Origin: Neisseria sp.
GTDB taxonomy: Bacteria > Pseudomonadota > Gammaproteobacteria > Burkholderiales > Neisseriaceae
NCBI GenBank assembly: GCA_030538415.1
Contig: JAUNTY010000003.1
Span: 20,030 to 84,029, forward strand
DNA length: 64,000 bases
Reading direction: 5' to 3'
The translations under genes and the position numbers were made by a program. How positions within the stretch are numbered: position 1 is the first letter of the stretch; each line of letters begins with the position of its first letter. This document shows positions 4,357 to 61,674 of this stretch, piece after piece. The notes under the pieces are model-generated. The model ran no database searches, was not told the origin of the DNA, and was given only the letters and a program-made list of their open reading frames with translations.

Positions 4357-4464
4357 TATAGTCGGAGATGTAGATTCTGGTACAAGGCGGCGAGTCGCAG
4401 GCAGTACAAATAGTACGACAAGGCGAGCCAACGCCGTAGCAGAAACTCATTTCCCCGACTATAC
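4357..4464. repeat. Correia-like MITE, family A, long form (~108 bp), terminal inverted repeats TATAGTCGGAG...CCCCGACTATA
   Basis: Ends in TATAG/CTATA. The core ACAAGGCGGCGAGTCGCAGGCAGTACAAATAGTACGACAAGGCGAGCCAACGCCGTAGCAGAAAC is shared with about 20 other copies in the window and resembles the Correia element core. Confidence 0.8.
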
Positions 4465-4537
4465 ATATCCAATAAAGCGGCGGGCGCTTCCTGCCGTGCG
4501 CCCGCCGCATCACTTCATCCACAGGCCGTCTGAACGT

Positions 4538-5497
4538 TTATTCGACTGCCTGGTCGGTCGGATTGGCGATGATTTCCTTCACCTGCGCCGACATCGGGAA
4601 GTCGAGGTTTACGTTTTTCGGCGGAATCGGGCTTTCAAACCATTTTTTATACAAGGCGTCGATTTCGGCGGTGTTTTTGAAGGTGGCATCCAGAGCGCCG
4701 TCAACCACGGTCTTGAATGCGCTGTCGCCTTTGCGCAGCATGCAGCCGTAGCGCTCAAACGACATCGGCTCGCCCACAATCACCCATTTGTCGGGCTCCG
4801 CCGTTTTGGCGCGCTCGCCCGCCAGCAAGATGTCGTCCATCATGAATGCCTGGGCGCGGCCGTTGAACAACATCAGCGCCGCTTCGCCGTGATCTTTGGC
4901 AGAGATGATGTTCATGCCGAGTTTTTCCTTGTCGTTATAGGCTTTGAGCAGGCGCTCGGAGGTGGTGCCCGCAGTGGTGACCACGGTTTTGCCTTTCAGA
5001 TCGGGAAAGCCTTGAATGCCGGAATCGTTCGCCGTCATCAGGCGGGTGCCGATTTCAAAAAAGGCATTGGAGAAATCCACCTGCTTCTGACGCTCGAGGT
5101 TGTTGGTGGTGGAGCCGCATTCGATGTCGACCGTGCCGTTGCTCACCAGCGGAATGCGGTTTTGCGAGGTGACGAGGTTGTAGCGCACCTTCAGGTCGGG
5201 CATATTCAGCTCTTGTTTCACCGCTTCCACCACTTTCAACTGCAAGTCGTGGGCATAGCCCACCGGCTGGTTGGGCTGGTCGGCTATGTAGGAAAACGGA
5301 ATCGAAGAATCGCGGTGCCCCAACACAATGGTGCCCGACGACTTGATTTTCTCCAGCGTGCCCTGCCCGCTTACAGCGGCAGGCGCTTCACCGGAAGCGG
5401 CGCTGCCGGCGGGTTTCGACGATTCCCCGCCGCAAGCGGCGAGCCCCAGCGCCACCATGCAGGCGAGGCCGAACGGTTTTAATGCGTTTCGTTTCAT
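4538..5497 (-). CDS. Amino acid ABC transporter periplasmic substrate-binding lipoprotein (GltI-like)
   Basis: 319 aa with a signal peptide and lipobox (LAAC), the solute-binding protein family 3 fold, and a GGGAG Shine-Dalgarno sequence. Confidence 0.85.
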   Translation of the reverse strand: MKRNALKPFGLACMVALGLAACGGESSKPAGSAASGEAPAAVSGQGTLEKIKSSGTIVLGHRDSSIPFSYIADQPNQPVGYAHDLQLKVVEAVKQELNMPDLKVRYNLVTSQNRIPLVSNGTVDIECGSTTNNLERQKQVDFSNAFFEIGTRLMTANDSGIQGFPDLKGKTVVTTAGTTSERLLKAYNDKEKLGMNIISAKDHGEAALMLFNGRAQAFMMDDILLAGERAKTAEPDKWVIVGEPMSFERYGCMLRKGDSAFKTVVDGALDATFKNTAEIDALYKKWFESPIPPKNVNLDFPMSAQVKEIIANPTDQAVE

Positions 5498-5688
5498 ATT
5501 TCGCTCCCAATCCTTTTTATTTTTTATCGGCTGAACGCGCCAGCCTCCGGCACCGGGCAGCAGACCCGATGCAGCCTATCCTAGCTCAAGCTTTTTTATT
5601 TGACAATCACCTTAACACTTGAAAATAACAAACACATGATTTTAATTAACAATAAAACAAAAAATATGATGAAGCAACATATAAATTG

Positions 5689-5716
5689 TTGACAATTTAA
5701 GCAGGAAAAATATAAT
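5689..5716 (+). promoter_or_regulatory. Near-consensus sigma70 promoter (TTGACA, 16 bp spacer, TATAAT)
   Basis: TTGACA at about 5689-5694 and TATAAT at about 5711-5716 with a 16-bp spacer in an AT-rich intergenic region. It points at a DUS-pair terminator about 40 nt downstream and not at any plus-strand gene. Confidence 0.45.
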
Positions 5717-5751
5717 ATTGGCGGCATTATTCATGCCTTTAATCATATAAA

Positions 5752-5790
5752 ATGGCCGTCTGAAAGCTTTCAGACGGCCATTTTATTAAT
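5752..5790. terminator. Inverted DUS pair forming a bidirectional rho-independent terminator
   Basis: AAAATGGCCGTCTGAAAGCTTTCAGACGGCCATTTTATT forms a perfect hairpin followed by a T-tract. It ends the minus-strand acidic-protein gene and any short plus-strand transcript. Confidence 0.7.
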
Positions 5791-5821
5791 CATGAAACAA
5801 CTATTCGGCCTGCTCCGCCCC

Positions 5822-6217
5822 TCAGCAATGGCTGCCGTCTTTCGGATTCGGATGAATCTGCTCAGGCTGCGTAATCGCACGGGCGCGGATTTCCTCATCG
5901 CTCAAAGGCTGCTGCGCATAGGTGCGCACATCGTCCACCGAATCTTCGATTACCAATTCGCGCTCCTCCGCTTCCATTTCATCGGCAGGCGTAAACGCAT
6001 GGCATTCGGAAATATCATCGGTATTCACTTCCACCTGTGGTTGGATGGCCGCCTGCTCCGCCAGCGGTGCGGCTTCAGCCTCGGCCTCAGCCTGTTCGGC
6101 TGCCACGGCACGGCGCTCCAGAAAATCATCACAACGCTCCTGGCTCACCAGTGCGGACTCTTCCGCCTCCATCAATTGCGCGGGGTCGGGCATGCGGTTT
6201 GTTTTGGCATCAGTCAT
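5822..6217 (-). CDS. Hypothetical highly acidic protein (131 aa, Glu/Asp/Ala-rich, EAEAEAEA tract)
   Basis: Strong Shine-Dalgarno sequence (TAAGGAGGAAAAAACATG) and a terminator immediately downstream. No family is recognised. Confidence 0.6.
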   Translation of the reverse strand: MTDAKTNRMPDPAQLMEAEESALVSQERCDDFLERRAVAAEQAEAEAEAAPLAEQAAIQPQVEVNTDDISECHAFTPADEMEAEERELVIEDSVDDVRTYAQQPLSDEEIRARAITQPEQIHPNPKDGSHC

Positions 6218-6613
6218 GTTTTTTCCTCCTTATTGGTATATGCAGCGGGTTTCATATTGAGGCTTTATCATAACAAGAAAGCCTGCGCCTGAAAGCATTT
6301 TTTTCATCTGCAAACAGCAAAATCCTGCCCGCCTCAAGCCGACAACACCCTCCCCGCCAGCCAAAACAAGCCCTGCATCACATTGCCCGCCTGCGGTGCG
6401 GCGGCAAACAAATCCGCGTCCGCCACCGCCGCCAAATCCGCGCCGCCGATGCCGAGCAGCAGTAAAACGGCCGGCCGCCGAATTCGTTCATCCGCGCTTC
6501 GACCTGTTTGATTTCCGCCGTCAGCAACACATATAGTGGTTCATTCCATGTTTTCTAAAAACAAGGCCGTCTGAAAACAATGCGTTCAGACGGCCTTTAT
6601 CATTCGTTAGCGA

Positions 6614-7912
6614 TTACGCCCACACCAGCAGCGCATGGTTGCGTTTGCCGCGGCGCACGATGGTGTATTTGCCGAAGCGTTTGTGTGCATCGGTCAAAAG
6701 ATAAGCATCATCGGGTTTTTCCGCCGCATGCTCGGGGTTGTTCGGTTCGGCAATTTGGCCGTTCAACACCACGGCTTTGCTACCCACAAAACCGCGCGCT
6801 TCTTTGTTGGAAGAGGCGAGTTTTGCCGCAATCAATGCTTCCACCACATTCAGACGGCCTGATACTTCAAACGCGGGCAAACCGTCAAGCGCGAGTTGCT
6901 CGAAGTCGGCTTCGGTGAGGTTGCTCTGGTCTTCGGCAAACAGGCTGGCGGAGATGCGTTGCGCCGCTTCCAAAGCCGCTTCGCCGTGAATCAGGCGGGT
7001 CATTTCTTCGGCCAGAATGCGCTGCGCTTCGGGTTTCGCGCCGCTCGCTTTGTCTTTTTCTTCAATCGCATCGATTTCCGAAACGCTCAGGAAGGTGAAG
7101 TATTTCAGGAATTTATATACATCGGCATCGGCCACTTTCAGCCAGAACTGGTAAAACTGATACGGCGAGGTTTTCTTGGCATTCAGCCACACCGCGCCGC
7201 CTTCGGTTTTGCCGAATTTGGTGCCGTCGGATTTGGTCACCAGCGGCAGCGTGAGGCCGAACACCTGCTTTTGATTCAGACGGCGGGTGGCGTCGATGCC
7301 CCAAGTGATGTTGCCCCATTGGTCGGAGCCGCCGATTTGCAGCTGCACGCCGTGGCGCTTGTTCAGCTCGGCAAAGTCGTAGCCTTGCAGCAATGCGTAG
7401 GCAAATTCGGTAAACGAAATGCCCACATCATCGCGCTCGATGCGCTGCTTGACCGATTCTTTCGCCAACATCGCGTTCACCGAAAAATGCTTGCCGATGT
7501 CGCGCAAAAAGTCCAAGCAGCCCATGCCGCCGAACCAGTCGTAGTTGTTCGCCATCACCGCCGCATTGCCGCCCTCGAAGCTCAAAAACGGCATCAACTG
7601 GCCTTTGATGCTTTCCACCCAGTTTTTCACGGTATCGAGCGTATTCAAACTGCGCTCCACCGCTTTGAAACTCGGGTCGCCGATCATACCGGTCGCGCCG
7701 CCCACCAAAGCCACCGGCGTATGACCCGCCAGTTGGAAACGGCGCAAAGCCAACACCGGCAGCAAGTGGCCGATGTGCAGGCTGTCGGCTGTCGGGTCGA
7801 AACCGCAATAGAGCGAGATTTTTTGTTCGGCCAACAGCGCATCGAGCGCTTCGATGTCGGTGGTTTGCGCAATCAGGCCGCGCGCCTGCAGGTCTTGAAT
7901 CACTGATTTCAT
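6614..7912 (-). CDS. tyrS: Tyrosine--tRNA ligase
   Basis: 432 aa with the HIGH motif (LHIGHLLP), a KMSKS-like KFGKT motif and a C-terminal S4 domain. Confidence 0.92.
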
Positions 7913-7939
7913 TAAAAGCTTCCATTCATGATTAATAAA

Positions 7940-8767: not shown

Positions 8768-8849
8768 ATTTGAAATGCCCCCAGATTAGCGAACCAAAGA
8801 AAAAAGACAAACGAATCATTTTTAAAAATCAATTTTATTTCGACGGGTT

Positions 8850-8964
8850 AATATTAATTATCGTCAAAAACTCAATATCTGATGAATACAAGGCAACAAT
8901 CCGCAGTCAATACAAACAAACCCAGCAACACCGTGGTAGGCATTAAGTTTCCCGACCGTATATT
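8850..8964. repeat. Decayed family A Correia-like element remnant
   Basis: The right half CAAGGCAACAATCCGCAGTCAATACAAAC...GGTAGGCATTAAGTTTCCCGACCGTATA aligns to family A cores and inverted repeats but is heavily mutated. Confidence 0.4.
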
Positions 8965-9753: not shown

Positions 9754-9813
9754 GAGGCCTTTGCAAAAAACAACCGTCGAACCCTTGCCGGGGGAATTTT
9801 GCAAAGGCCTCAG
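9754..9813. repeat. Family B MITE, minimal form (ends only)
   Basis: GAGGCCTTTGCAAAAAACAACCGTCGAACCC...GAATTTTGCAAAGGCCTCAG, carrying the same termini as the 220-bp family B copies. Confidence 0.5.
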
Positions 9814-9818
9814 CCCAT

Positions 9819-9862
9819 CATGCAAAAGCACGGCCGCAATCATACGGCCGTGCTTTTTTGTG
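9819..9862. terminator. Bidirectional terminator hairpin (GCACGGCCG...CGGCCGTGC followed by a T-tract)
   Basis: Lies downstream of the ychF stop. The stem is flanked by A-tracts and T-tracts. Confidence 0.6.
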
Positions 9863-9876
9863 CCTGCTGCGCCTGC

Positions 9877-10968
9877 TTACACGTTAAACAGGAAGTGAAT
9901 CACATCGCCGTCCTGCACGATGTATTCTTTGCCCTCGGCGCGCATCTTGCCCGCTTCCTTGGCCTTGGCTTCGCCGCCCAGGGTGACGAAATCGTCATAA
10001 GCAATCACTTGGGCGCGGATGAAGCCGCGTTCGAAATCGGTGTGGATGGCGGCGGCGGCGCGGGGGGCGCTGTCGCCTTTGTGAATCGTCCAGGCGCGCA
10101 CTTCTTTGACACCGGCGGTGAAATAGGTTTGCAGGCCGAGCAAATCGTAGCCCGCGCGGATGAGGCGGTTCAAGCCCGGCTCTTCCAAGCCCATTTCCTG
10201 CAAAAATTCGGCTTTTTCTTCGTCTTCCAACTCGGCGATTTCGCTTTCCATCGCAGCGCAAACGGCGACCACGGGGGCGTTTTCTTTGGCGGCCAATGCT
10301 TGCAGGCGCTCAAGGTGGGGGTTGTTTTCAAAACCGTCTTCGGCCACGTTGCCGACATACATCGCGGGTTTGGCGGTGAGCAGAAACAGCGGTTTGAGCA
10401 AGGCCAGCTCTTCGGCATCAAGGCCGAACGAGCGCACGGGTTTGCCTTCGTTCAGGTGCGGCAGCAGTTTTTCGCACAGGGCGACCAGTTTTTGCGCGTC
10501 TTTGTCGCCCGACTTGGCCCGTTTGCCTTCGCGGGTGATGGCTTTTTCCACCGAAGCCAAATCGGCCAAGGCCAGCTCGGTGCCGATGGTTTCGATGTCG
10601 GCAATCGGATCGACTTTGCCGGCGACGTGGACGATGTTGTCGTCGTCAAAACAGCGCACCACGTTCACAATCGCATCGGTTTCGCGGATATTGGCCAAAA
10701 ATTGGTTGCCCAAGCCCTCGCCTTTGCTCGCGCCCGCCACCAGGCCTGCGATATCGACAAATTCCACAATCGCGGGCTGCATTTTTTGCGGATTGACGAT
10801 TTTCGCCAACGCATCCATGCGCGAATCGGGCACTTCGACGATGCCGACATTGGGCTCGATGGTGCAGAAAGGATAGTTGGCCGCCTCGATGCCCGATTGG
10901 GTCAAGGCGTTGAAAAGCGTGGATTTACCGACATTCGGCAGGCCGACGATACCGCATTTTAAGCTCAT
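9877..10968 (-). CDS. ychF: Ribosome-binding ATPase YchF (redox-regulated GTP-binding protein family)
   Basis: 363 aa with the G1 motif [12 protein letters not shown] and a TGS domain C-terminus. Confidence 0.92.
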
Positions 10969-11083: not shown

Positions 11084-11274
11084 AGCCTTTGCAAAATTTC
11101 CCCGCCCTGTCGCTCCCGCGCAGGCGGGAGCCTAGGGCAAAGCGCCGCTTTGCTTGTGGCTCGGCTTGCGACCATGTTTCAAAACGCCTGCAAATTTGAC
11201 TGCAAGGCCGTCTGAAACTGAATCTGCGATTCAGACTGGGCACCCGCACAGGGGGATTTTACAAAAGTCTCAGT
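11084..11274. repeat. Family B MITE copy with a degenerate right arm
   Basis: Left arm CCTTTGCAAAATTTCCCCGCCCTGTCGCTCCCGCGCAGGCGGGAGCCTAGGGCAAAGCG. Right arm ...CAGACTGGGCACCCGCACAGGGGGATTTTACAAAAGTCTC. Confidence 0.6.
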
Positions 11275-11406
11275 GATTCAAACCGTCAGGATGCTTTATT
11301 GATTTTCAAACAATTTCATTAGAGCAGTTCACCTAATCTTTGTTTTTGATTATGCTGCTTCAACCGCACATCACTCTCTCAAGCTGCGGATAACAAAGGA
11401 GAAATC

Positions 11407-11814
11407 ATGAAGAAATTAATCATCCTGGCCGCCCTCGCCAGCCCGCTCGCGTTCGCACAAGGCATCGAAGGCAAATGGCGCACCATCGACGACGAAACCG
11501 GCAAACCCAAGGCGGTGGTGCAAATCAGCCAGAGCGGCGGCACTTACAGCGGCAAAATCGTCTCGCTGGCAGACGGCGTGAAAAACGAATGCCCGGCCTG
11601 CCAACCCGCCAAACCGCTCATCGGCCTGACCATATTGACCGGCCTGAAAGAAAAAGGTGGCAAATACGAGGGTGGCAAGATTTACGACCCGAAAAGCGGC
11701 AAAACCTACAATGCCAAGGCCGAAACAGCCAACGGCGGTCAGGCGCTGAAAGTGCGCGGTTATCTCGGCGTGTCGGCGCTGGGGCGCACCCAAACCTGGC
11801 AGAAAGCGGACTGA
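11407..11814 (+). CDS. DUF2147 family periplasmic protein, copy 1
   Basis: 135 aa with signal peptide MKKLIILAALASPLAFA and the conserved GKWRTIDDETGKPK...GKIYDP motif. Good AAGGAG Shine-Dalgarno sequence. Confidence 0.7.
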   Translation: MKKLIILAALASPLAFAQGIEGKWRTIDDETGKPKAVVQISQSGGTYSGKIVSLADGVKNECPACQPAKPLIGLTILTGLKEKGGKYEGGKIYDPKSGKTYNAKAETANGGQALKVRGYLGVSALGRTQTWQKAD

Positions 11815-12049
11815 GCTTCACCGGCAAATCAAAGGCCGTCTGAAAAGCCGGATGGGTTGCCGCATCTATCCAATTCAGCCAGGCTTTCAGACGGCCTTGA
11901 AGCCGCCGCAACATTGCCCCAAATAATCATTTGACTTTAAAATAAATTAAATTTCAGCCAAGCCATTCACTTCATCCGTGTTTTTCGTTATTCTTTGCCA
12001 ACAAGAAAAATAAATCCTTGTGTTAAAAGGAGAATACATAAATAAATTA

Positions 12050-12445
12050 ATGATACTGGTAGCGCTGTTCAGCCCACTGGCCTTCGCGCAAGGTATCGAA
12101 GGCAAATGGCGCACCTTCAGCGACCTCACCGGTAAGCCCGAGGCGGTACTGCAAATCAGCCAAAACGGCGGTGTGTACAGCGGCAAAATCGTCTCGCTGG
12201 CAGACGGTGTGAAAAACGAATGCCGCGCCTGCCAACCCGCCAAACCGCTCATCGGCCTGACCGTGCTGTCCGGCTTGAAAGAAAAAGGCGGCCGATACGA
12301 AGGCGGTAAAATCTACGACCCGGCAAACGGCGCAACCTACAACGTCAAAGCCGAGCTGGCCAATGGCGGCAGCGCTTTGAAAGTGCGCGGTTATTTGGGG
12401 GCTTCCACCTTGTGGCTCATCCAAACCTGGCAGAAAGCAGATTAA
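12050..12445 (+). CDS. DUF2147 family periplasmic protein, copy 2 (tandem paralog)
   Basis: About 75% identical to copy 1 (GIEGKWRTFSDLTGKPEAVLQISQNGGVYSGKIVSLADGVKNEC...). The ATG at about 12050 is preferred over the upstream GTG used by the ORF track. Confidence 0.65.
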   Translation: MILVALFSPLAFAQGIEGKWRTFSDLTGKPEAVLQISQNGGVYSGKIVSLADGVKNECRACQPAKPLIGLTVLSGLKEKGGRYEGGKIYDPANGATYNVKAELANGGSALKVRGYLGASTLWLIQTWQKAD

Positions 12446-12449
12446 GTTT

Positions 12450-12521
12450 TATAGTCGAAGAAATTAGTTTCTGCTACGGCGTTGGCTCGCCTTGTATCAG
12501 AATCTAATTTCTCCGACTATA
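12450..12521. repeat. Family A Correia-like element, short form (~72 bp)
   Basis: TATAGTCGAAGAAATTAGTTTCTGCTACGGCGTTGGCTCGCCTTGTATCAGAATCTAATTTCTCCGACTATA. It lacks the central segment present in the long form. Confidence 0.75.
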
Positions 12522-12577: not shown

Positions 12578-14091
12578 TTATTTAAACAGCAAAATCAACA
12601 CCAACGCCACCGCAATCACCGCCAGCCACAAACTTTGCCGCTGCTGGATTTTCACCAGATGAATGTAGGCATCGCGCATTTCCTGCTGGCGCGTTTCATC
12701 CACCAGCATATTCAGCTTGCGCGGCAGGCTCGGCAGGATTTGCGCCCAATCGGGCGCTTCTTCTTTCAAATTGCGCAACAGGGCTTTGGGGCCGACCTGC
12801 TCGTTCATCCAACTGACTAAAAACGGCTTCGCCGTTGCCCACAAATCCAAATCGGGATCGAGTTGTCTGCCCAAGCCCTCGATGTTGAGCAGGGTTTTTT
12901 GCAGCAACACCAGCTGCGGCTGGATTTCTACATTGAAACGGCGGCTGGTTTCAAACAGGCGCATCAGCACCAGGCCGAACGAAATCTGCGACAAGGGCTT
13001 GTTGAAAATCGGCTCGCACACCGCGCGCACGGCGGCTTCCAGCTCTTCGGCACGGGTGTCGGCGGGCACCCAGCCCGATTCGATGTGAGCGGTGGCGACG
13101 CGGTGGTAATCGCGGTTGAAAAAGGCGAGAAAATTAATCGCCAGATAGCGTTTGTCGTATTCGGTGAGGCTGCCGACAATGCCGAAATCGAGCGCGATGT
13201 AGCGGTTGTCGGCGGCGACGAGGATATTGCCGGGGTGCATATCGGCATGGAAAAAGCCGTTTTTAAACACTTGGGTGAAGAAAATTTCCACGCCGTAACG
13301 GGCGAGCTTTTTCAAATCAATACCGTCTGAACGCAATTTTTCCACATCCGAAATCGGCGTGCCGTCCATCCATTCGATGGTGAGCACGTCGCGACTGCAA
13401 TAATCGAAATATACCTGCGGCACAATCAGCATATTGCTGTCGGTAAAGTTGCGGCGCAGTTGGCTGGCGTTGGCCGCTTCTTTCATCAAATCCAATTCGT
13501 CGTGCAGGTATTTGTCGAATTCTGCCACCACCTCCTGCGGTTTCAGGCGCTTGCCGTCGGCAAACAGCCGCTCTATCCATTTGGCACCGAAACGCATCAG
13601 CGCCAAATCCTGCTCGATGACCGGCAGCAAATCGGGGCGCAACACCTTTACTGCCACCGCTTCGCCGCTGTGTAAACGCGCCTTGTGCACCTGCGCCACC
13701 GAAGCGCTGGCCACCGGCACTTCGTCAAATTCGGCATACACTTTACCAATCGGATGCCCGAGCGAAGCCTCAATGTGCATGCGTGCAACCGTGCCGGGAA
13801 ACGGCGGCACTTTATCTTGCAGCTTCGCCAGCTCCCGCGCATATTCCGGCGGCAGAATATCGGGGCGGGTGGAGAGTACCTGCCCCAGCTTCACAAAAAT
13901 CGGCCCCAGGCTCTCCAGCGCCAAGCGCAGGCGCACCGGCAGCGGCTCCTCGTGGCTCTGCGGGCTTTGCGGCAGCTTCTGCAGCAACAGACGCAGCCAT
14001 TCGGGGCGCACATGCCCGGCAAAAATGTCGGCGAGGCCGTAGCGGTAAATCGTTTTAATGATGGTGGTGGAGCGTTTCAGCCATTTCATGA
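12578..14091 (-). CDS. ubiB: Ubiquinone biosynthesis regulatory protein kinase UbiB (ABC1/ADCK family)
   Basis: Atypical kinase motifs, a C-terminal transmembrane segment and about 500 aa. The start is set at [10 protein letters not shown]; the longer track ORF reads through the adjacent MITE. Confidence 0.88.
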
Positions 14092-14107
14092 GCGGTCTTT
14101 GCAGTAA

Positions 14108-14215
14108 TATAGTCGGAGCAATGAGATTCTGATACAAGGCGGCGAGCCGCAGACAGTACAGATAGTACGACAAGGCGAAACAACGCTGTAGCAGAAACTC
14201 ATTTCTTCGACTATA
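14108..14215. repeat. Family A Correia-like element, long form
   Basis: TATAGTCGGAGCAATGAGATTC...GAAACTCATTTCTTCGACTATA, abutting the ubiB start. Confidence 0.8.
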
Positions 14216-15671: not shown

Positions 15672-15774
15672 TATAGTCGGAGAGTAAGTTTTAATACAAG
15701 GCGGCGAGCCGCAGACAGTACAGATAGTACGGCAAGCACAGCAACGCCGTAGTAAAACTTACTCTCCGACTATA
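15672..15774. repeat. Family A Correia-like element, long form
   Basis: Starts at the metF stop: TATAGTCGGAGAGTAAGTTTTAATACAAGGCGGCGAGCC...ACTCTCCGACTATA. Confidence 0.8.
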
Positions 15775-15908: not shown

Positions 15909-15980
15909 TATAGTCGAAGAAATGAGTTTTTACTACGGCGTTGGCTCGCCTTGTATCAGAATCTCATTTCTCCGACTATA
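15909..15980. repeat. Family A Correia-like element, short form
   Basis: TATAGTCGAAGAAATGAGTTTTTACTACGGCGTTGGCTCGCCTTGTATCAGAATCTCATTTCTCCGACTATA. Confidence 0.75.
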
Positions 15981-18354: not shown

Positions 18355-18386
18355 TATAGTCGAAGAAATGAGTTTCTCCGACTATA
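18355..18386. repeat. Family A element reduced to its two inverted repeats (32 bp)
   Basis: TATAGTCGAAGAAATGAGTTTCTCCGACTATA, which is the left and right inverted repeats fused with no core. Confidence 0.6.
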
Positions 18387-18398: not shown

Positions 18399-18476
18399 TG
18401 GGCAGACAAGCAAAGCTGCGCTTTGCACTGGGCACCCGCCTGCGCGGGTGCGACGGTTATTTTTTGCAGAGGTTTC
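18399..18476. repeat. Family B MITE half-copy (reverse orientation)
   Basis: GGGCAGACAAGCAAAGCTGCGCTTTGCACTGGGCACCCGCCTGCGCGGGTGCGACGGTTATTTTTTGCAGAGG. Confidence 0.55.
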
Positions 18477-20173: not shown

Positions 20174-20281
20174 TATAGTCGAAGAAATGAGATTCTGATA
20201 CAAGGCGGCGAGCCGCAGACAGTACAGATAGTACGACAAGGCGAGCCAACGCCGTAGCAGAAGCTCATTTATTCGACTATA
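20174..20281. repeat. Family A Correia-like element, long form
   Basis: TATAGTCGAAGAAATGAGATTCTGATACAAGGCGGCGAGCCGCAGACAGTACAGATAGTACGACAAGGCGAGCCAACGCCGTAGCAGAAGCTCATTTATTCGACTATA. Confidence 0.8.
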
Positions 20282-24379: not shown

Positions 24380-24872
24380 TTATTCGGGCAGGCCTTCCAC
24401 AATGTAAGTGCGCGAATTGCCGGCGCGGTGGCGGATGGGGATGATTTTGCGGTATTCGGGCGAGTTGTACCAGGCTTGCGCTTGGGCGAGGCTGTCGAAC
24501 TTGATCATCACCAGCCGCCCCTGCGCGCCGAAGCCTTCTTTCACGTCGGCTTCGCCGCCGCGCACGATGTATAGTCGGAGAAATTAAGTTTTAATACAAG
24601 GCGGCGAGCCGCAGACAGTACAGGCAGTACGACAAGGCGAGCCAACGCCGTAGTAAAGCTTAATTTCTCCGACTATAGCGGCCGCTATACGGGCGGAAGG
24701 TATCTTCCACTTCGGCGCTGTAAGGGCGGATGGCCTCGCGGTCGGTGGCTTCGAATTCGGCCACATAATAAGCGGGGCTTGCCTTGGCTGCACCGGCGGG
24801 CGCGGCATGGGCGGCCAGCGGCAGGGCGGCTGCGGCCACTGCGGCGAAGGCAGACAAAAACAGTTTGGTCAT
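24380..24872 (-). pseudogene. DUF1330 family secreted protein gene disrupted by insertion of a 108-bp family A MITE
   Basis: The N-terminal piece (24660..24872: MTKLFLSAFAAVAAAALPLAAHA...PAYYVAEFEATDREAIRPYSGRY) and the C-terminal piece (24380..24565: ...RLVMIKFDSLAQAQAWYNSPEYRKI...) are in different frames and are separated by the element at 24570..24677. Deleting the element and keeping one TA restores a continuous DUF1330 ORF (…GRYIVRGGEADV…). Confidence 0.75.
24570..24677. repeat. Family A Correia-like element, long form, inserted at a TA inside the DUF1330 gene
   Basis: TATAGTCGGAGAAATTAAGTTTTAATACAAGGCGGCGAGCCGCAGACAGTACAGGCAGTACGACAAGGCGAGCCAACGCCGTAGTAAAGCTTAATTTCTCCGACTATA. Confidence 0.85.
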
Positions 24873-25333: not shown

Positions 25334-25441
25334 TATAGTCGAATAAATGAGCTTCTGCTACGGCGTTGGCTCGCCTTGCCGTACTATCTGTACTGTCTGC
25401 GGCTCGCCGCCTTGTATCAGAAGCTCATTTCTCCGACTATA
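25334..25441. repeat. Family A Correia-like element, long form (reverse orientation)
   Basis: TATAGTCGAATAAATGAGCTTCTGCTACGGCGTTGGCTCGCCTTGCCGTACTATCTGTACTGTCTGCGGCTCGCCGCCTTGTATCAGAAGCTCATTTCTCCGACTATA. Confidence 0.8.
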
Positions 25442-28883: not shown

Positions 28884-28989
28884 TATAGAGGGAAAACTTA
28901 CTCTAATACAAGGCAGCAAGCCGCAGACAGTACAGATAGTACGGCCAGGCGCAGCAACGTCGTGGTAGGAATTAAGTTTTCCCTCTATA
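28884..28989. repeat. Family A-type element with variant inverted repeats TATAGAGGGAAAAC...GTTTTCCCTCTATA
   Basis: The core CAAGGCAGCAAGCCGCAGACAGTACAGATAGTACGGCCAGGCGCAGCAACG is shared with family A. The inverted repeats differ. Confidence 0.7.
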
Positions 28990-29017: not shown

Positions 29018-29089
29018 TATAGTTGGAGAAATGAATTTCTGATACAAGGCGAGCCAACGCCATAGCAGAAACTCATTTCTCCGACTATA
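29018..29089. repeat. Family A element, short form
   Basis: TATAGTTGGAGAAATGAATTTCTGATACAAGGCGAGCCAACGCCATAGCAGAAACTCATTTCTCCGACTATA. Confidence 0.7.
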
Positions 29090-31114: not shown

Positions 31115-31222
31115 TATAGTCGAAGAAATTAGATTCTGATACAAGGCGGCGAGCCGCAGGCAGTACAGATAGTACGACAAGGCGAGCCAACGCCGTAGCA
31201 GAATCTAATTTCTTCGACTATA
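31115..31222. repeat. Family A Correia-like element, long form
   Basis: TATAGTCGAAGAAATTAGATTC...GAATCTAATTTCTTCGACTATA, followed by the hairpin repeat GCGTGGACTCTGCCCGCG. Confidence 0.8.
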
Positions 31223-31487: not shown

Positions 31488-31892
31488 GAGACCTTTGCAA
31501 AATTCTTCTGCCCGTCGCGCCCGCGCAGGCGGGTGCCTAGTGCAAAGCGCGGCTTTGCTTGCCTGCCCATTTCGATTATTCCAAAAACCCAAGTTGAATC
31601 ATTGAGTTGTATAGTCGTTTCAATTTAGACTGAAACAAGGCAGCAAGCCGCAGGCAGTACAGATAGTACGACAAGGTGCAGCAACGCCGTAGCAGATATT
31701 AAGTTTAGCCACTATAGTACGGCTAGGCGAAGCAACGCTGTATCAAACTAACGGAACGACTATATTATTCCAAAAACCGAATTTGAATCATTGGGTTGTA
31801 TATTTTCAAACCTGGCAGGTTTGAGCTGAAGCTGCGCTTCAGACTGGGCACCCGCCTGCGCGGGTGCGACGGTTATTTTTTACAAAGGTCTC
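31488..31892. repeat. Composite repeat: a family B MITE carrying a nested family A-type element
   Basis: Family B ends GAGACCTTTGCAAAAT...GTCGCGCCCGCGCAGGCGGGTGCC at the left and ...CTGGGCACCCGCCTGCGCGGGTGCGACGGTTATTTTTTACAAAGGTCTC at the right. Inside, a TATAGTCGTTTCAATTTAG-type element (31610..31764) is flanked by a 37-bp direct duplication. Confidence 0.7.
31610..31764. repeat. Family A-type element, inverted-repeat variant 3 (TATAGTCGTTTC...), plus an adjoining half element
   Basis: Complete copy at 31610..31716 (…AGTTTAGCCACTATA), followed by a right-half copy ending AAACTAACGGAACGACTATA. Confidence 0.65.
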
Positions 31893-34327: not shown

Positions 34328-34384
34328 TATAGTCGAAGAAATGAGTTTCTGCTACGGCGTTGGCTTGCCTTGTCGTACTATAGC
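34328..34384. repeat. Truncated family A element (left half only)
   Basis: TATAGTCGAAGAAATGAGTTTCTGCTACGGCGTTGGCTTGCCTTGTCGTACTATA, ending at the internal GTACTAT. Confidence 0.55.
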
Positions 34385-39402: not shown

Positions 39403-39500
39403 TATAGTCGGAGAAATAAGATTCTGATACAAGGCGGCGAGCCGCAGACAGTACAGATGGCGAGCCAACGCCGTAGCAGAATCTTATTTCTTCGACTATA
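39403..39500. repeat. Family A element, intermediate form (~98 bp, internal deletion)
   Basis: TATAGTCGGAGAAATAAGATTCTGATACAAGGCGGCGAGCCGCAGACAGTACAGATGGCGAGCCAACGCCGTAGCAGAATCTTATTTCTTCGACTATA. Confidence 0.75.
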
Positions 39501-39563: not shown

Positions 39564-39783
39564 AGCCCTTTGCAAAACTCCCCTGCCTGTCGCACCCGCG
39601 CAGGCGGGTGCCTAGGGCAAAACGTAGTTTTGCTTGTCTGTCCATGTTTCTCTGATTCTAAAAATCTATTATGAATCATAATTTTGCGTGTTTTCAGGGT
39701 TGGCAAGTTTGAGCTGAAGCCTTGCTTCAGGCTGGGCACCCGCCTGCGCGGGTGCGACGGTTATTTTTTCGCAAAAGTCGCAG
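39564..39783. repeat. Family B MITE, full copy (~220 bp)
   Basis: GAGCCCTTTGCAAAACTCCCCTGCCTGTCGCACCCGCGCAGGCGGGTGCCTAGGGCAAAACG...GGCTGGGCACCCGCCTGCGCGGGTGCGACGGTTATTTTTTCGCAAAAGTCGCAG. Confidence 0.75.
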
Positions 39784-40381: not shown

Positions 40382-40459
40382 TATAGTCGTTTCAATTTAG
40401 ATTGAGACAAGGCAGCAAGGCGCAGTAACGCTGTATCAAACTAAATTGGAACGGCTATA
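40382..40459. repeat. Family A-type element, inverted-repeat variant 3, short form
   Basis: TATAGTCGTTTCAATTTAGATTGAGACAAGGCAGCAAGGCGCAGTAACGCTGTATCAAACTAAATTGGAACGGCTATA. Confidence 0.65.
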
Positions 40460-42053: not shown

Positions 42054-42161
42054 TATAGTCGGAGAAATTAGATTCTGATACAAGGCGGCGAGCCGCAGAC
42101 AGTACAGATAGTACGACAAGGCGAGCCAACGCCGTAGCAGAAACTCATTTCTTCGACTACA
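42054..42161. repeat. Family A Correia-like element, long form
   Basis: TATAGTCGGAGAAATTAGATTCTGATACAAGGCGGCGAGCCGCAGACAGTACAGATAGTACGACAAGGCGAGCCAACGCCGTAGCAGAAACTCATTTCTTCGACTACA. Confidence 0.8.
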
Positions 42162-51558: not shown

Positions 51559-51768
51559 TATAGTCAGGAAAATTAATTTTTATAGTCGTTTCGTTAGCTT
51601 GAGACAAGGCAGCAAGCCGCAGACAGTACAGATAGTACGGCAAGGCGCAGCAACGCTGTATCAAGCTAAATTGAAACGACTATAATACAAGGCGGCGAGC
51701 CGCAGACAGTACACGCAGTACGGCTAGGCGAGCCAACGCAGTAGCAAAAGTTAAGTTTCCTGACTATA
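51559..51768. repeat. Nested MITEs: a family A-type element (variant TATAGTCAGGAAA inverted repeats) interrupted by a variant-3 element
   Basis: The outer element runs TATAGTCAGGAAAATTAATTTT, then the inner TATAGTCGTTTCGTTAGCTTGAG...TTGAAACGACTATA (51581..51684), then AATACAAGGCGGCGAGCCGCAGACAGTACACGCAGTACGGCTAGGCGAGCCAACGCAGTAGCAAAAGTTAAGTTTCCTGACTATA. Confidence 0.7.
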
Positions 51769-53079: not shown

Positions 53080-53187
53080 TATAGTCGGAGAAATTAGATT
53101 CTGATACAAGGCGGCGAGCCGCAGACAGTACAGATAGTACGACAAGGCGAGCCAACGCCGTAGCAGAAACTCATTTCTTCGACTATA
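53080..53187. repeat. Family A Correia-like element, long form
   Basis: TATAGTCGGAGAAATTAGATTC...GAAACTCATTTCTTCGACTATA, followed by the hairpin repeat GCGTGGGCTTTGCCCACG. Confidence 0.8.
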
Positions 53188-53220: not shown

Positions 53221-53300
53221 GAGACCTTTTTGAAAAAATAACCGTCGCACCCGCGCAGGCGGGTGCCCAGCCTGCAGCACAGCTTCAGCTTAAACTCAAC
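53221..53300. repeat. Family B MITE half-copy (reverse orientation)
   Basis: GAGACCTTTTTGAAAAAATAACCGTCGCACCCGCGCAGGCGGGTGCCCAGCCTGCAGCACAGCTTCAGCTTAAACTC. Confidence 0.55.
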
Positions 53301-57317: not shown

Positions 57318-57365
57318 ACGTATTAATATAACCCATATAAGAAGCGGTATTCGCAAGCCGCATGA

Positions 57366-58082
<717 letters not shown>

Positions 58083-58124
58083 GCTTCCATGGATACAGAG
58101 GCCGTCTGAATGTTCAGACGGCCT

Positions 58125-58340
58125 CTGTCCTTTGCAAAATTCCCTGCTCGTCGCACCCGCGCAGGCGGGTGCCCAGTGCAAAGCGTAGCTTTGCTTGTCT
58201 GCCCATTTTTCTGATTCTGAAAAATCAAGCAAAATCAATAAGTTGATTATTACCAAAGCTGATAAATTTAAGATGTCACCATGCTTCAGACTGAGCACCC
58301 GCCTGCGCGGGCGCGACGGTTATTTTTTTACAAAGGTCTC
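58125..58340. repeat. Family B MITE, full copy (~216 bp)
   Basis: CCTCTGTCCTTTGCAAAATTCCCTGCTCGTCGCACCCGCGCAGGCGGGTGCCCAGTGCAAAGCG...CAGACTGAGCACCCGCCTGCGCGGGCGCGACGGTTATTTTTTTACAAAGGTCTC. Confidence 0.75.
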
Positions 58341-58450
58341 GGCCTTAGATTTTTTTCCGGCTGAACCCTCGCTAACGGCCATATTGCAAGATTTCGATTT
58401 TGGGAAATTTTACTGTGCCGCGCCAATTCCGGTATGGCCACAAACAAAAA

Positions 58451-58476
58451 AGCACCGAAACATCGGTGCTTTTTTC
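58451..58476. terminator. Bidirectional rho-independent terminator downstream of the tRNA operon
   Basis: AGCACCGAAACATCGGTGCT stem flanked by an A-tract and a T-tract. Confidence 0.65.
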
Positions 58477-58486
58477 AAATCGGGAT

Positions 58487-58565
58487 TGGCGGAGTGGACG
58501 GGGCTCGAACCCGCGACCCCCGGCGTGACAGGCCGGTATTCTAACCAACTGAACTACCACTCCGC
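58487..58565 (-). tRNA. tRNA-Asp (anticodon GTC)
   Basis: Reverse complement GCGGAGTGGTAGTTCAGTTGGTTAGAATACCGGCCTGTCACGCCGGGGGTCGCGGGTTCGAGCCCCGTCCACTCCGCCA; almost identical to E. coli tRNA-Asp. Confidence 0.92.
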
Positions 58566-58574
58566 ACAAAAAAC

Positions 58575-58650
58575 TGGTGGGTGATGACGGAGTCGAACCG
58601 CCGACATTCTGCTTGTAAGGCAGACGCTCTACCAACTGAGCTAATCACCC
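58575..58650 (-). tRNA. tRNA-Val (anticodon TAC)
   Basis: Reverse complement GGGTGATTAGCTCAGTTGGTAGAGCGTCTGCCTTACAAGCAGAATGTCGGCGGTTCGACTCCGTCATCACCCACCA. A 9-nt spacer separates it from tRNA-Asp. Confidence 0.92.
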
Positions 58651-58728
58651 GTTTTCTTCGCACTCTTCGCTGCGAGAACGTGATTAAACCAAAATCCCGC
58701 CTGCCGCGCAAGTATTTTTGCGATTATT

Positions 58729-60711: not shown

Positions 60712-60761
60712 AGATATCCGTTCTTTTCAAGAAAGCCACAGCCATGTCGAAGCCTTTAATA

Positions 60762-60869
60762 TATAGTGAAAAAACTTAATATCTGCTACGGCGTTGCTGC
60801 ACCTTGCCGTACTATCTGTACTGTCTGCGGTTTGCTGCCTTGTATCAAATATTAAGTTTTTCCACTATA
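60762..60869. repeat. Family A-type element, inverted-repeat variant 4 (TATAGTGAAAAAACTTAATAT...)
   Basis: TATAGTGAAAAAACTTAATATCTGCTACGGCGTTGCTGCACCTTGCCGTACTATCTGTACTGTCTGCGGTTTGCTGCCTTGTATCAAATATTAAGTTTTTCCACTATA. Confidence 0.75.
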
Positions 60870-60972
60870 GTCAATTAAAATGAAAACAATTCAAGGCGGC
60901 GGGCGGAAGACAGCAAACTCTGTGCGGCAAAACGAGGAAACGCTGGGGTGTTTCTTATTTTAATTGACTATA
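60866..60972. repeat. Family A-type element, inverted-repeat variant 5 (TATAGTCAATTAAAATG...), sharing its terminal TA with the preceding element
   Basis: TATAGTCAATTAAAATGAAAACAATTCAAGGCGGCGGGCGGAAGACAGCAAACTCTGTGCGGCAAAACGAGG...TTTCTTATTTTAATTGACTATA. Confidence 0.6.
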
Positions 60973-61047
60973 AACAATCGCTTTTTATTATCTATGCTAT
61001 CAAACAAAATAAAAAGGCCGTCTGAAAAATATTTTTCAGACGGCCTG

Positions 61048-61215
61048 GGGCTTCCTGACAGCGCAGCGGTGTTGTTTACGAGGGGATTTTTGTTCCTGAA
61101 AATGCAGATGCAAGGCAAAAAACGCAGCAAGGTTGGACACCTTGCGAGGCTTTTTAACGCAGCAGATGCGTTTTCAGGGGCAAAAGCACCCGTAAATCGA
61201 ATTGTCAGAAAGCCC
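61048..61215. repeat. Family C MITE, second copy
   Basis: About 90% identical to 21355..21514. It directly abuts a reversed family B MITE. Confidence 0.7.
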
Positions 61216-61216
61216 T

Positions 61217-61436
61217 GAGACCTTGGCAAAAAAATAACCGTCGCACCCGCGCAGGCGGGTGCCCAGTCTGAAGCAAGGCTTCAGCTTAAACTTGCCAGCC
61301 TTGATAATATTCAACCCAATGATTCATATTGATTTTTTGAAATCAAAAAGATGGGGGGACAAGCAAAGCCGCGCTTTGCACTAAGCACCCGCCTGCGCGG
61401 GTGCGACGTACAGAGGAATTTTGCAAAGGCCTCAGC
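61217..61436. repeat. Family B MITE, full copy in reverse orientation
   Basis: GAGACCTTGGCAAAAAAATAACCGTCGCACCCGCGCAGGCGGGTGCCCAGTCTGAAGC...GCTTTGCACTAAGCACCCGCCTGCGCGGGTGCGACGTACAGAGGAATTTTGCAAAGGCCTC. Confidence 0.7.
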
Positions 61437-61466
61437 TTAACACTATAAAAGGCCGTCTGAAAAATA

Positions 61467-61674
61467 TATAGTCGTTCCGTTAGATTGATACAAGGCAGCA
61501 AGCCGCAGACAGTACAGATATAGTGAAAAAACTTAATATCTGCTACGGCGTTGCTGCACCTTGCCGTACTATCTGTATTGTCTGCGGTTTGCTGTCTTGT
61601 ATCAAATATTAAGTTTTTCCACTACAGTACGGCAAGGCGCAGCAACGCTGTATCAAACTAACGGAACGACTATA
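61467..61674. repeat. Nested MITEs: a variant-3 family A element with a variant-4 element inserted at its central TA
   Basis: The outer element runs TATAGTCGTTCCGTTAGATTGATACAAGGCAGCAAGCCGCAGACAGTACAGA, then the inner copy TATAGTGAAAAAACTTAATAT...TTTTTCCACTACA (61519..61626), then GTACGGCAAGGCGCAGCAACGCTGTATCAAACTAACGGAACGACTATA. Confidence 0.75.

Follow-up and report, generated by a model that had tools for sequence, protein, structure and literature searches.

Correia-like TATAG...CTATA elements with variable terminal inverted repeats in a Neisseriaceae contig related to Uruburuella

Elements and their gene neighbourhood

The 64-kb stretch of DNA analysed here (the window) carries metF, ubiB and the genes for malate synthase G, an NCS2 permease, dapA and dapC, and is interspersed with short TATAG...CTATA elements. 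A profile search with nhmmer together with inspection by eye revealed 25-26 such elements at 23 loci, spanning positions 4357-61674. A preliminary description had placed about 25 copies between these positions, and the count agrees while the limits are exactly those claimed. The conserved core, CAAGGCGGCGAGCCGCAGACAGTACAGATAGTACG, gave 14 matches with at most three mismatches in the window against 0.00 expected from 100 shuffles. The density is ~0.4 elements per kb on the basis of this one 64-kb window. All 23 loci were intergenic in a window that is 75% coding (P ~1e-14), and none of 286 core matches in 2.7 Mb of Neisseriaceae DNA was found inside a gene. The flanks are unrelated between the copies in the window, and intact copies have TA at both ends, except two ending in CA.

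Six end types were distinguished:

Type A, TATAGTCGGAGAAAT: ~14 copies, among them the sub-variants at 24570 and 15672
Type B, TATAGAGGGAAAAC: at 28884
Type C, TATAGTCGTTTCAATTTAG: at 31610, 40382, 51581 and 61467
Type D, TATAGTG[G/A]AAAAACTTAATAT: at 60762 and 61519
Type E, TATAGTCAGGAAAATTAA: at 51559
Type F, TATAGTCAATTAAAATG: at 60866

The elements are listed below with the evidence for each; L112 denotes a colinear contig that is 86-92% identical to the window.

4357-4463, forward: full 107 bp, type A (TATAGTCGGAG...); core match, nhmmer E=2e-30
8860-8962, forward: degenerate relic, right end type B-like; nhmmer E=2e-07 (profile positions 23-105), sequence reading
12450-12521, reverse: 72-bp short form, type A, 36-bp deletion; perfect predicted hairpin, -37.4 kcal/mol, z -10.1
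14108-14215, forward: full 108 bp, type A, 18 bp upstream of ubiB; core match, nhmmer
15672-15774, forward: full 103 bp, type A sub-variant, 2-nt deletion in both arms; hairpin -48.1 kcal/mol
15909-15980, reverse: 72-bp short form, type A, near the malate synthase G 3' end; sequence reading
18355-18386, no strand assigned: 32-bp ends-only palindrome, type A arms; hairpin -11.9 kcal/mol
20174-20281, forward: full 108 bp, type A; core match, nhmmer
24570-24677, forward: full 108 bp, type A sub-variant, both arms ...AAATTAAG[T/C]TTTA; core match, nhmmer
25334-25441, reverse: full 108 bp, type A, in a divergent promoter region; core match, nhmmer
28884-28989, forward: full 106 bp, type B; core match, nhmmer, folding
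29018-29089, forward: 72-bp short form, type A; sequence reading
31115-31222, forward: full 108 bp, type A, arms match 25/26; hairpin -55.9 kcal/mol, z -10.9
31610-31765, forward: chimera, types C/D/C; nhmmer matches 31610-31716 and 31714-31763, sequence reading
34328-34381, reverse: 54-bp half element, comprising a type A end as far as core ATAGTACG; nhmmer E=6e-13 (profile positions 55-108)
39403-39500, forward: 98 bp, type A, 10-bp core deletion; nhmmer, sequence reading
40382-40459, forward: 78-bp short form, type C; not present at the corresponding position of L112
42054-42161, forward: full 108 bp, type A with CTACA as right end, flanked by the NCS2 permease gene and dapA; core match, nhmmer
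51559-51768, forward: outer element, type E, 108 bp after subtraction of the nested copy and one TA
51581-51684, forward: nested 104-bp type C element, within the type E copy 51559-51768 at one of its TAs; core match, nhmmer
53080-53187, forward: full 108 bp, type A, downstream of dapC; core match, nhmmer
60762-60869, reverse: full 108 bp, type D (TATAGTGGAAAAAC); core match, nhmmer, folding
60866-60972, forward: 107 bp, type F, diverged core, adjoining the 60762-60869 element and sharing its TATA; nhmmer E=6e-07
61467-61674, forward: outer type C element, 102 bp after subtraction of the nested copy; nhmmer
61519-61626, reverse: nested type D element, inserted in the core of the surrounding copy at its TA (ACAGA|TA|GTACGG); 97% identical to 60762-60869

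At least five inverted-repeat variants had been claimed, and all six that were quoted exist in the window. The three size classes also proved real (~108, 72-78 and 32 bp). Full forms measure 103-108 bp; the 72-bp forms (12450, 15909, 29018) lack 36 bp between ACAAGGCG direct repeats, and are accompanied by the 78-bp form at 40382, the 32-bp ends-only form at 18355 and further sizes of 98 bp (39403) and 54 bp (the half element at 34328), besides the degenerate relic (~8860-8962). Missing from the preliminary description were two TA-nested insertions, an inner/outer chimera, the half element and the exclusively intergenic placement. Several of the copies are lacking in a ~90%-identical relative.

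The placement at gene ends was borne out at all four genes for which it had been put forward. The element 15672-15774 begins 4 bp past the metF stop codon, and 15909-15980 lies 15 bp past the 3' end of malate synthase G. The ubiB ORF (12578-14173) extends 28 codons into the element 14108-14215 and the UbiB profile begins at residue 29; this element supplies a false 28-codon N-terminal extension of the ORF. The start of the NCS2 permease ORF falls inside 42054-42161. The statement that almost every long ORF with the core peptide is an artefact was overstated: this peptide, the reverse-strand translation of the core, occurs seven times, and the sole case in a long ORF is the ubiB extension. Among 20 weak sigma-70-like matches in the 12-32 kb region, which are matches to the consensus only, six use the terminal TATAGT as -10 box and take the -35 box from the flank.

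Relation to canonical Correia elements

The core had been described as Correia-like. Compared with canonical Correia cores taken from 32 public contigs it is ~90% identical; alignment to those of L002-L032 over ~56 nt shows 4-5 substitutions plus a single 1-nt indel. The Correia elements (CREE/nemis) of N. meningitidis, N. gonorrhoeae and N. lactamica have in common with the window elements a core of ~55 nt in the same directionality, together with ends starting in TATAG, TA bounds, a hairpin formed by the whole element and many intergenic copies near gene ends. The 26-bp ends, in contrast, are unrelated to TATAGTGGATTAAC beyond TATAG(T), in accordance with the earlier claim that they differ from the canonical ones. 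The defining 26-bp Correia repeat (TATAG[CT]GGATTAAC/AAT...), searched as four published patterns (PMC2911385, PMC5039591), gave 0 matches in the window at <=3 and at <=5 mismatches, while TATAGTGGATTAAC gave two at <=2 mismatches. The coexistence of at least six end types in the window is a further difference, as is the host, an Uruburuella-like lineage.

The size classes of 103-108 and 72 bp parallel the ~105 and 71-73 bp classes of the CREE series, whose longest class is ~153-157 bp (PMC2649163). Forms of ~155 bp with type A ends were seen in Bergeriella denitrificans (156 bp in L072) and no long form was found in the window. The window contains no match to CTTCAGCANCTTA at <=1 mismatch for the IHF-binding site CTTCAGCACCTTA, which is expected because this site belongs to the long forms only. 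Meningococcal genomes contain ~250 Correia copies each (PMC5039591); the preliminary description had put the density here above that of canonical elements, a comparison based on this one window.

The window elements are short and non-coding, with terminal inverted repeats, many dispersed copies and insertion polymorphism, as is general for MITEs. ERIC and other TA-flanked MITEs are likewise small, intergenic inverted-repeat elements that fold in transcripts and affect mRNA processing (PMC3184786; PMC10969869); they show no sequence similarity to the present elements, and conservation in them lies at the ends, whereas in the present elements it lies in the interior and the ends vary. The window elements are best classed as Correia-superfamily MITEs with ends other than the canonical ones, and searches for Correia elements based on the ends miss this variant completely.

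Hairpin structure and arm covariation

Each element is an imperfect palindrome having terminal TATAG(T), a stem of ~24-27 bp formed from both ends and a conserved core of ~55 nt with the apex GTAC-AGATA-GTAC. For those full-length elements (103-108 bp) that were folded as RNA, the predicted energies were -34 to -56 kcal/mol with z of -5.7 to -10.9. Covariation was analysed across 18 end types, each represented by the best-paired member of its cluster, a choice that inflates the percentage paired: 98.1% of stem cells were paired against 77.4% in shuffles (0/500 reached the observed value) and 31-48% with slid partners. Cells changed on both sides numbered 94 against 28 in shuffles, and the 13 terminal pairs were 100% paired with up to four pair types per column. 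Identity between end types was 40% at arm positions 7-26 and 76% in the core. Arm variation was graded: within types A and C, sub-variants are set apart by two-sided changes and by indels that recur identically in both arms; the 2-nt deletion in both arms of 15672 has its counterpart in 61467. What is conserved is the terminal pentamer, the core sequence and the complementarity of the arms, whereas the arm sequence itself is free.

The arm mismatches were strongly biased, with 197 G·T/T·G against 26 A·C/C·A (49 against 9 in cluster consensus); some are common to related types by descent, and collapsed by type the figures become ~25 against 6. This bias indicates that the hairpin matters in one strand, and pairing is kept in the strand CAAGGCGGCG...AACGCCGT because the mismatches there are of the tolerated G·T/G·U kind. 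Of 153 elements, 131 folded more stably in the core(+) strand than in the complementary one when treated as RNA and 149 when treated as DNA, the mean advantage being 4.2 kcal/mol. A role of the hairpin in mRNA alone would lead one to expect elements pointing in the direction of the flanking genes, but this tendency was weak (56 vs 37).

Host and spread across Neisseriaceae

The contig is labelled 'Neisseria sp.', and the preliminary description had implied an AG-DUS Neisseria as host. The use of AG-DUS stood (94 copies), and the classical commensal Neisseria did not; the host is represented by an uncultured MAG, and of the named species Uruburuella testudinis and U. suis come closest to it. 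The window is very rich in DUS, with 110 copies in 64 kb.

That the family is dispersed was corroborated by the occurrence of the same end types outside the genome of the window. Type A ends are also present in the isolate genome of B. denitrificans (CP181246.1), type C ends are present in a related metagenome contig, and a Kingella MAG has an end resembling type C. In 2.7 Mb of Neisseriaceae DNA the common core is combined with at least 20 end types. Unrelated interiors also occur between A2-type arms or between other TATAG ends (L118 4279-4386, L119 5713-5805, L123 5967-6116), so the core is dispensable for some TATAG-ended elements.

Evidence for mobility

The elements at 40382, 42054 and 53080 are absent from L112, and the last is also absent from U. 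testudinis (L113). In L112 the empty sites have diverged so far that they display no clean TA. Insertion at TA is seen in the nested copies, 51581-51684 in 51559-51768 and 61519-61626 in 61467-61674, where the TA is single in uninterrupted copies. Duplication of TA is inseparable from insertion of a single-TA unit because the ends are palindromic. The chimera 31610-31765 consists of a type C left end with core, a type D right end (to 31716) and an outer type C right half (31714-31765). It is comparable to the intact nested case at 61467 and, from its layout, may be read as the product of two steps, insertion of a type D element into the TA of the core and later loss of the DNA separating the two cores. 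The search for a transposase in the window gave none, nor did 2.7 Mb of related loci yield an autonomous element whose ends match, so mobilisation in trans is an assumption.

Discussion

The reading preferred here, with a probability of roughly 0.75, is that the elements are non-autonomous, TA-bounded MITEs of the Correia (CREE/nemis) superfamily, mobile in trans, in which the arms are kept paired and the core and termini are conserved. They would spread through a putative enzyme that acts in trans, inserts them at TA and relies on the conserved termini and/or the core, or on the hairpin shape, with the variable part of the arms not being read. The arms have drifted into many types through two-sided changes, possibly aided by arm-to-arm copying within the hairpin, and copies would survive only between genes. 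Deletion between the internal direct repeats would give the 72-bp forms, and further loss the 32-bp form. By analogy with the canonical Correia hairpins, the transcribed hairpin is likely to be an RNase III substrate or an mRNA-stability element, and the terminal TATAGT could serve as a -10 box where the flank provides a -35 box.

A more specific proposal concerns recognition in the Correia superfamily, which would depend on the core, the invariant TATAG and the shape of the hairpin in one particular strand and not on transposase-bound ends, the stem drifting while selection or arm copying keeps it paired. This proposal is quite unlikely to hold in full. If true, it would explain many end types with one core, as well as the lack of a reported transposase matching Correia ends; to our knowledge, none has ever been reported.

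It is unlikely that the end types are instead independent MITE families, each descended from an insertion sequence of its own and moved by a cognate transposase that reads its duplex repeat, with the core passed on between families by recombination or nesting. The chimera shows recombination of the core between types, the TATAG ends with unrelated interiors in L118, L119 and L123 point in the same direction, and in ordinary MITE families the ends serve as transposase binding sites. However, six or more types in 64 kb would demand many cognate transposases in one genome, and no autonomous element with such ends was present in the 2.7 Mb of Neisseriaceae DNA. The graded two-sided variation of the arms also argues against separate families, and the one-strand excess of G·T over A·C is not predicted by duplex binding.

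Movement as a single-stranded DNA hairpin of the core(+) strand, by an HUH-type or other structure-specific enzyme following REPIN/RAYT or IS200/IS605 logic, is very doubtful. Such movement would suit an element that is one hairpin as a whole, with a free stem sequence, preserved pairing and a strong strand asymmetry of mismatches and folding energy, the core(+) strand being the more stable as DNA in 149 of 153 elements; the asymmetry is also stronger in type consensus (49:9) than in private mismatches (57:26), which fits selection at propagation. The active strand of IS608 is the one on the lagging-strand template, but the orientation of the present elements relative to GC skew is weak (121 vs 85) and opposite in sense to IS608. 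RNA explains the tolerance of G·U equally well, and for canonical elements a duplication of TA has been reported, as typically left by staggered double-strand cuts. PATE, of the IS200/IS605 type, has strand-specific hairpins without terminal inverted repeats and a replication-tied orientation; the present elements show a strand asymmetry of pairing but have full-length inverted repeats. The likeness to REPIN/REP sequences extends to hairpin repeats with a conserved short tag, a family-variable stem, arms evolving in step and long persistence (PMC3116915; PMC3733652), but REPs are 20-40 bp, GC-rich and have a GTAG or CGTC tag and a RAYT gene, and in REPINs they are paired in inverted orientation. 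The elements carry neither tag, and no RAYT gene was found among the ORFs tested. In Neisseria the REP/RAYT system is that of the dRS3 repeat and not of the Correia element (bioRxiv 10.1101/2021.07.10.451892; PMC3733652).

Immobile structural or regulatory palindromes (RNA-processing or terminator-like), spread by homologous recombination and natural transformation, would be in line with the abundant DUS, the intergenic position of all copies near gene ends and the conserved hairpin. This is highly improbable in view of the copies nested precisely at TA within other copies, the presence or absence in otherwise colinear relatives and the unrelated flanks. Chance resemblance or a metagenome-assembly artefact, which might be suspected as the contig derives from a MAG, has a negligible probability given the 14 core matches against 0 expected, the unique flanks of elements (mostly ~108 bp, nested <=~210 bp) that would be unlikely to cause assembly joins, and the same types in the isolate genome of B. 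denitrificans.

As a separate observation, a variant of the dRS3 repeat also occurs in the window, and the CGTC-tagged repeats there form a family distinct from the TATAG elements.

Elements of the window and their forms

The presence of the Correia-like elements in the window was analysed through their core, the conserved middle of about 55 nt. This core gave 14 matches at ≤3 mismatches, compared with 0.00 expected from 100 dinucleotide-preserving shuffles of the window. The elements were counted in three ways: TATAG and CTATA ends with complementary arms were scanned for in pairs, a profile made from 13 full copies was searched, and the complex regions were read directly. The combined census revealed 25-26 elements at 23 loci spanning 4357 to 61674, which are the same limits as those given in the preliminary description, and its claim of a real element family is upheld by the core matches. 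All six end types that it had listed (A-F, named by their inverted-repeat arms) were found in the window, and its 108-, 72- and 32-bp size classes were all seen. The forms are as follows.

Full forms, 103-108 bp
Short form, 72 bp, three copies, with the 36-bp segment between the direct repeats ACAAGGCG absent
Type C short form, 78 bp
Ends-only form, 32 bp
Other forms: a copy of 98 bp that has lost 10 bp of the core, a half element of 54 bp and a single degenerate relic

The elements account for 3.8% of the window and for about 15% of its non-coding part. By rough gene calls about 75% of the window is coding, and yet each of the 23 loci is intergenic (P ~1e-14 under uniform placement). No long form was found among the window elements and no match to an IHF-site motif in the window, and at Rfam gathering thresholds no RNA family matched the elements. 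The sole Rfam matches in the window are two adjacent tRNA genes at 58490-58650 on the minus strand.

Relation to canonical Correia elements

A canonical set was obtained by scanning viral and prophage contigs with TATAG-N(18-40)-GCCGCAGACAGTACA, and nearly all of the resulting 32 loci were canonical Correia elements, in both 104-106-bp and ~155-bp forms. Compared with the canonical core, that of the window shows 4-5 substitutions and a single 1-nt indel in about 56 nt, and the arms have TATAG(T) alone in common. This supports the earlier reading of the elements as Correia-like with divergent inverted repeats. The features in common with Correia elements are the core, the apparently TA-bounded ends, the predicted hairpin, the intergenic niche and the size series, the last matching the gonococcal CREE sizes of 153-157, ~105 and 71-73 bp reported by Snyder et al. 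(PMC2649163). The window elements differ in being without the 26-bp Correia repeat, which formally defines Correia elements; the four published patterns of this repeat had no match in the window at ≤3 or ≤5 mismatches. These four patterns underlie the counts for commensals (PMC2911385) and for pathogens (PMC5039591, PMC2649163); the published censuses of commensal and non-human Neisseriaceae used a canonical repeat which finds 0 of the ~25 copies here. The lower numbers of Correia elements concluded for non-pathogens may therefore be due in part to the method, and a family-wide recount would need a core-based search. A literature search, incomplete in coverage, returned no account of variant-end elements, of 'Correia-like' elements or of Correia elements in Kingella, Uruburuella or Bergeriella.

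End types across Neisseriaceae

The comparison set consisted of the rluB neighbourhood from 79 species (genome scan) and 120 loci with a window-type core (metagenome scan). The core profile gave 286 core matches in 2.7 Mb, window included, and both arms could be identified in 222 of them. Canonical ends prevail in N. sicca, N. mucosa, N. polysaccharea, N. viridiae, N. uirgultaei, N. gonorrhoeae and N. lactamica. In Bergeriella denitrificans both type A ends, with a long form of 156 bp among them, and TATAGTCGAATAAAATAAG were found; the ends in a Kingella MAG are TATAGTGGATTCAATTTGAATG and the type C-like TATAGTCGTTTCACACAG. Further end types, such as TATAGTCGGAGAAGTGAAAAAGTAG, TATAGCGAAAGTAATAAAG and CATAGCAAAGAAAATC, were seen in N. 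dentiae, Neisseria sp. WLZKY-1 and many metagenome contigs. In U. suis, U. testudinis and several metagenome contigs the core lies within ATACC[A/C]ATTC...GGTAT ends and not TATAG...CTATA, and the terminal pentamer is therefore not universal in the superfamily. The ATACC...GGTAT-ended core copies, some of them tandem or nested, were located in the comparison contigs (L-numbers) as listed.

L034, 2906-2947 and 7542-7663
L033, 56-101
L113 (U. testudinis), 6595-6791
L120, L123 and other metagenome loci

At least 20 end types are common to one core. Between types, arm positions 7-26 average 40% identity and the core 76%; the two arms of one element are complementary at 82% of positions 7-26, compared with 39% for arms of different elements. 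The usual MITE pattern is reversed in that the interior is conserved and the hypervariable ends stay mutually complementary.

Arm pairing and its strand

The covariation of the arms was analysed using an alignment of 18 type representatives, whose invariant columns are concentrated in the core. RNAalifold predicted a single long hairpin with both-side changes at 17 of 31 pairs. In the 24-pair stem, 98.1% of cells were standard pairs, a percentage that is inflated because each cluster is represented by its best-paired member (pair-type diversity is unaffected), compared with 77.4% in shuffles, where 0 of 500 reached the observed value, and 31-48% with slid partners. Cells changed on both sides numbered 94, the shuffles giving 28. 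No sequence has a mismatch among the 13 terminal pairs, where a column holds up to four pair types. Elements 15672 and 61467 (cited by start) carry the same 2-nt deletion in both arms relative to sister types; element 51581 has this deletion in one arm only and looks like an intermediate or a recombinant.

The arm mismatches were counted in 144 elements, each oriented by its core, and gave 197 G·T/T·G, 26 A·C/C·A, 98 G·A/A·G, 19 C·T/T·C, 19 G·G and 1 C·C. The ratio of G·T to A·C was 49 to 9 in cluster consensus and about 25 to 6 events after related clusters were collapsed by hand into distinct end types; mismatches off the cluster consensus showed a weaker skew of 57 to 26. The core(+) strand, on which an element is oriented by its core, has the better predicted fold in 131 of 153 cases when treated as RNA and in 149 of 153 when treated as DNA, with an advantage of about 4.2 kcal/mol over its complement. 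The mismatch skew and this folding advantage indicate that pairing is maintained on one particular strand, or that strand-specific mutation acts. This strand may act either as RNA or as single-stranded DNA, and the orientation biases, which bear on this choice, are weak in both cases: in tandem gene contexts 56 elements run with the genes and 37 against, and the core(+) strand coincides with the C-rich strand in 121 cases and with the G-rich one in 85. The strand preference of IS608 is opposite in sense to this GC-skew bias.

The reversed conservation and the one-strand pairing limit how such elements can be recognised and moved. Wider interest lies in the undercounting by TIR-based searches, in a conserved core with ends that are free but paired, and in the strand-specific pairing signature. 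The first descriptions of Correia elements date from 1986-1988 (Correia et al., cited in PMC10969869).

Host of the elements

The dapC product, after a 100% identical protein labelled 'MAG: Neisseria sp.', is closest to a metagenome contig (95%) and Uruburuella testudinis (90%). RluB has its best identity, 86%, to a MAG, followed by 82% to Uruburuella suis and about 76% to N. flavescens, N. subflava and N. meningitidis. The DNA uptake sequence GCCGTCTGAA occurs in 110 copies in 64 kb (1.7 per kb), 94 of them of the AG-DUS dialect. From these identities and counts, the host is an uncultured Uruburuella-like member of Neisseriaceae, outside the classical human commensals. Many copies of GCCGTCTGAA form terminator-looking inverted pairs at gene ends, often beside hairpin elements.

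Nested copies and insertion activity

The type C element 51581-51684 is nested in the type E element 51559-51768, at a TA where the left arm of the latter gives way to its core. The type D element 61519-61626, in reverse orientation, is nested at the core TA (ACAGA-TA-GTACGG) of the type C element 61467-61674. When the inner copy and one TA are taken out, the outer elements return to their normal 108 and 102 bp. The stretch 31610-31765 opens with the left end of type C and a single core, continues with the right end of type D and closes with the right half of another type C element; such a structure would result if a D element had inserted into a C element at this core TA and a deletion had then taken place between the cores, which would have been direct repeats. 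Elements 60762-60869 and 60866-60972 adjoin, with TATA common to both. The nested copies, the chimera, the abutting pair and the all-intergenic placement go beyond what had been observed in the preliminary description.

Over ~40.5-58 kb the window has a colinear counterpart in the metagenome relative L112, with nucleotide identities of 86-92%. L112 has three elements in 21 kb, namely a short outer element, a type C copy within it and another type C copy. Four of the window loci fall in the aligned part (40382 at its edge, 42054, 51559 with a nested copy, and 53080), and four more elements lie beyond it (60762, 60866 and 61467 with its nested copy). L112 is without 40382, 42054 and 53080, and its intergenic DNA at the empty sites is too diverged for a clean TA or empty-site alignment. 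U. testudinis is without elements upstream and downstream of dapC, its alignment leaving the other window sites uncovered. These presence/absence differences and the nested copies show insertion activity in this lineage. Upstream of dapC, L112 holds a nested pair at 9770-9960, in which the short-form outer element has another end type (TATAGCGAAATAAAATAAG; TATAGCGAAATAAAATAAGAAAGA) and the inner type C copy is inverted compared with the window; independent insertions at the same spot, an inversion or rapid end turnover at the locus could each account for it.

The alternative that each end type is a separate MITE family, with its own transposase reading the ends as duplex DNA, is less probable; in its modular version, ends and core are separable and the enzyme reads the ends. 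TATAG...CTATA hairpins with interiors unrelated to the Correia core were seen in the comparison contigs, one group having an internal DUS and one of the elements having arms like those of the A2-type Correia variant.

L119, 5713-5805
L121, 3715-3807
L123, 5967-6116 and 6113-6272
L183, 641-742
L199, 3565-3798
L118, 4279-4386

These suggest a broader class of TATAG-ended MITEs in Neisseriaceae and, with the A2-type arms of one of them and the chimera 31610-31765, they leave room for the modular version. Against it are the occurrence of at least six end types together in 64 kb, the graded variation of the arms and the confinement of the signature to one strand, which reading of both ends as duplex DNA by a protein does not predict. 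No transposase gene was found among the window ORFs searched against NCBIfam and Pfam, and the 2.7 Mb of sequence yielded no larger element framed by such ends. Candidates for an autonomous parent (TATAG ends 260-4000 bp apart, without close partners) came to four pairs, all otherwise explained, by Kingella DUS-like repeats, two separate L118 elements and two half elements in the window. An affiliation with RAYT/REPIN was set aside, as this system in Neisseria goes with dRS3 repeats and not with Correia elements.

Neighbouring genes and predicted function

NCBIfam and Pfam confirmed ubiB, malate synthase G, rluB, the NCS2 permease gene, dapC, metF and others in the window. The ubiB ORF reaches 28 codons into element 14108-14215 and the start of the NCS2 permease ORF falls within element 42054-42161; the false N-terminal extensions claimed earlier are therefore real, a practical consequence for gene calling. 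The core-encoded peptide was a different matter: the 13-letter peptide does correspond to the core translated on its reverse strand and occurs seven times, but just one of the seven lies in a long ORF, compared with the 'almost every long track ORF' asserted before.

The stems of the window elements are predicted to be long and nearly perfect. RNase III and mRNA-stability experiments on canonical elements of meningococcus and gonococcus are summarised in PMC2649163 and PMC10969869, and by analogy transcribed copies should be RNase III substrates, changing mRNA stability. The natural variation of the arms offers a ready mutant set for the sequence requirements of RNase III processing and mobility. 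Among 20 weak sigma-70-like consensus matches at 12-32 kb, six have the terminal TATAGT as the -10 hexamer and a -35 from the flank, an arrangement that would resemble the CREE promoter type built of native and element sequence.

Other features of the window

A second repeat family, CGTCGC[A/G]CCCGCGCAGGCGGGTGC, is a CGTC-tagged REP like the neisserial dRS3. The dRS3 stem ATTCCC...GGGAAT and the window stem GCACCC...GGGTGC are different yet each complementary, and the window repeat is a dRS3 stem-variant, a family separate from the elements.

Copies: 18432-18455, 31513-31536, 31848-31871, 39736-39759, 53243-53266, 58149-58172, 58295-58318, 61239-61262, 61385-61408
Repeats flanking the copies: 11084-11157, 31489-31892, 39564-39780, 58125-58339

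The copies often form inverted pairs 150-330 bp apart with intervening repeats in common, like NIME or REPIN arrays. A block of these repeats of about 380 bp adjoins element 53080 and is missing from L112 and U. testudinis.

A 300-nt direct repeat (11395-11694 and 12026-12325, 83% identity) lies over the adjacent small ORFs 11407-11814 and 12050-12445 and is apparently a tandem gene duplication. The GC content of 62000-64000 is 0.40 compared with ~0.56 elsewhere, and its ORFs 62526-63542 and 63555-63959 had no Pfam match. In the short related contig L238, ORF 62526-63542 has a family-25 glycosyltransferase gene after it, and because of this neighbour the region may be an acquired surface-glycan locus.
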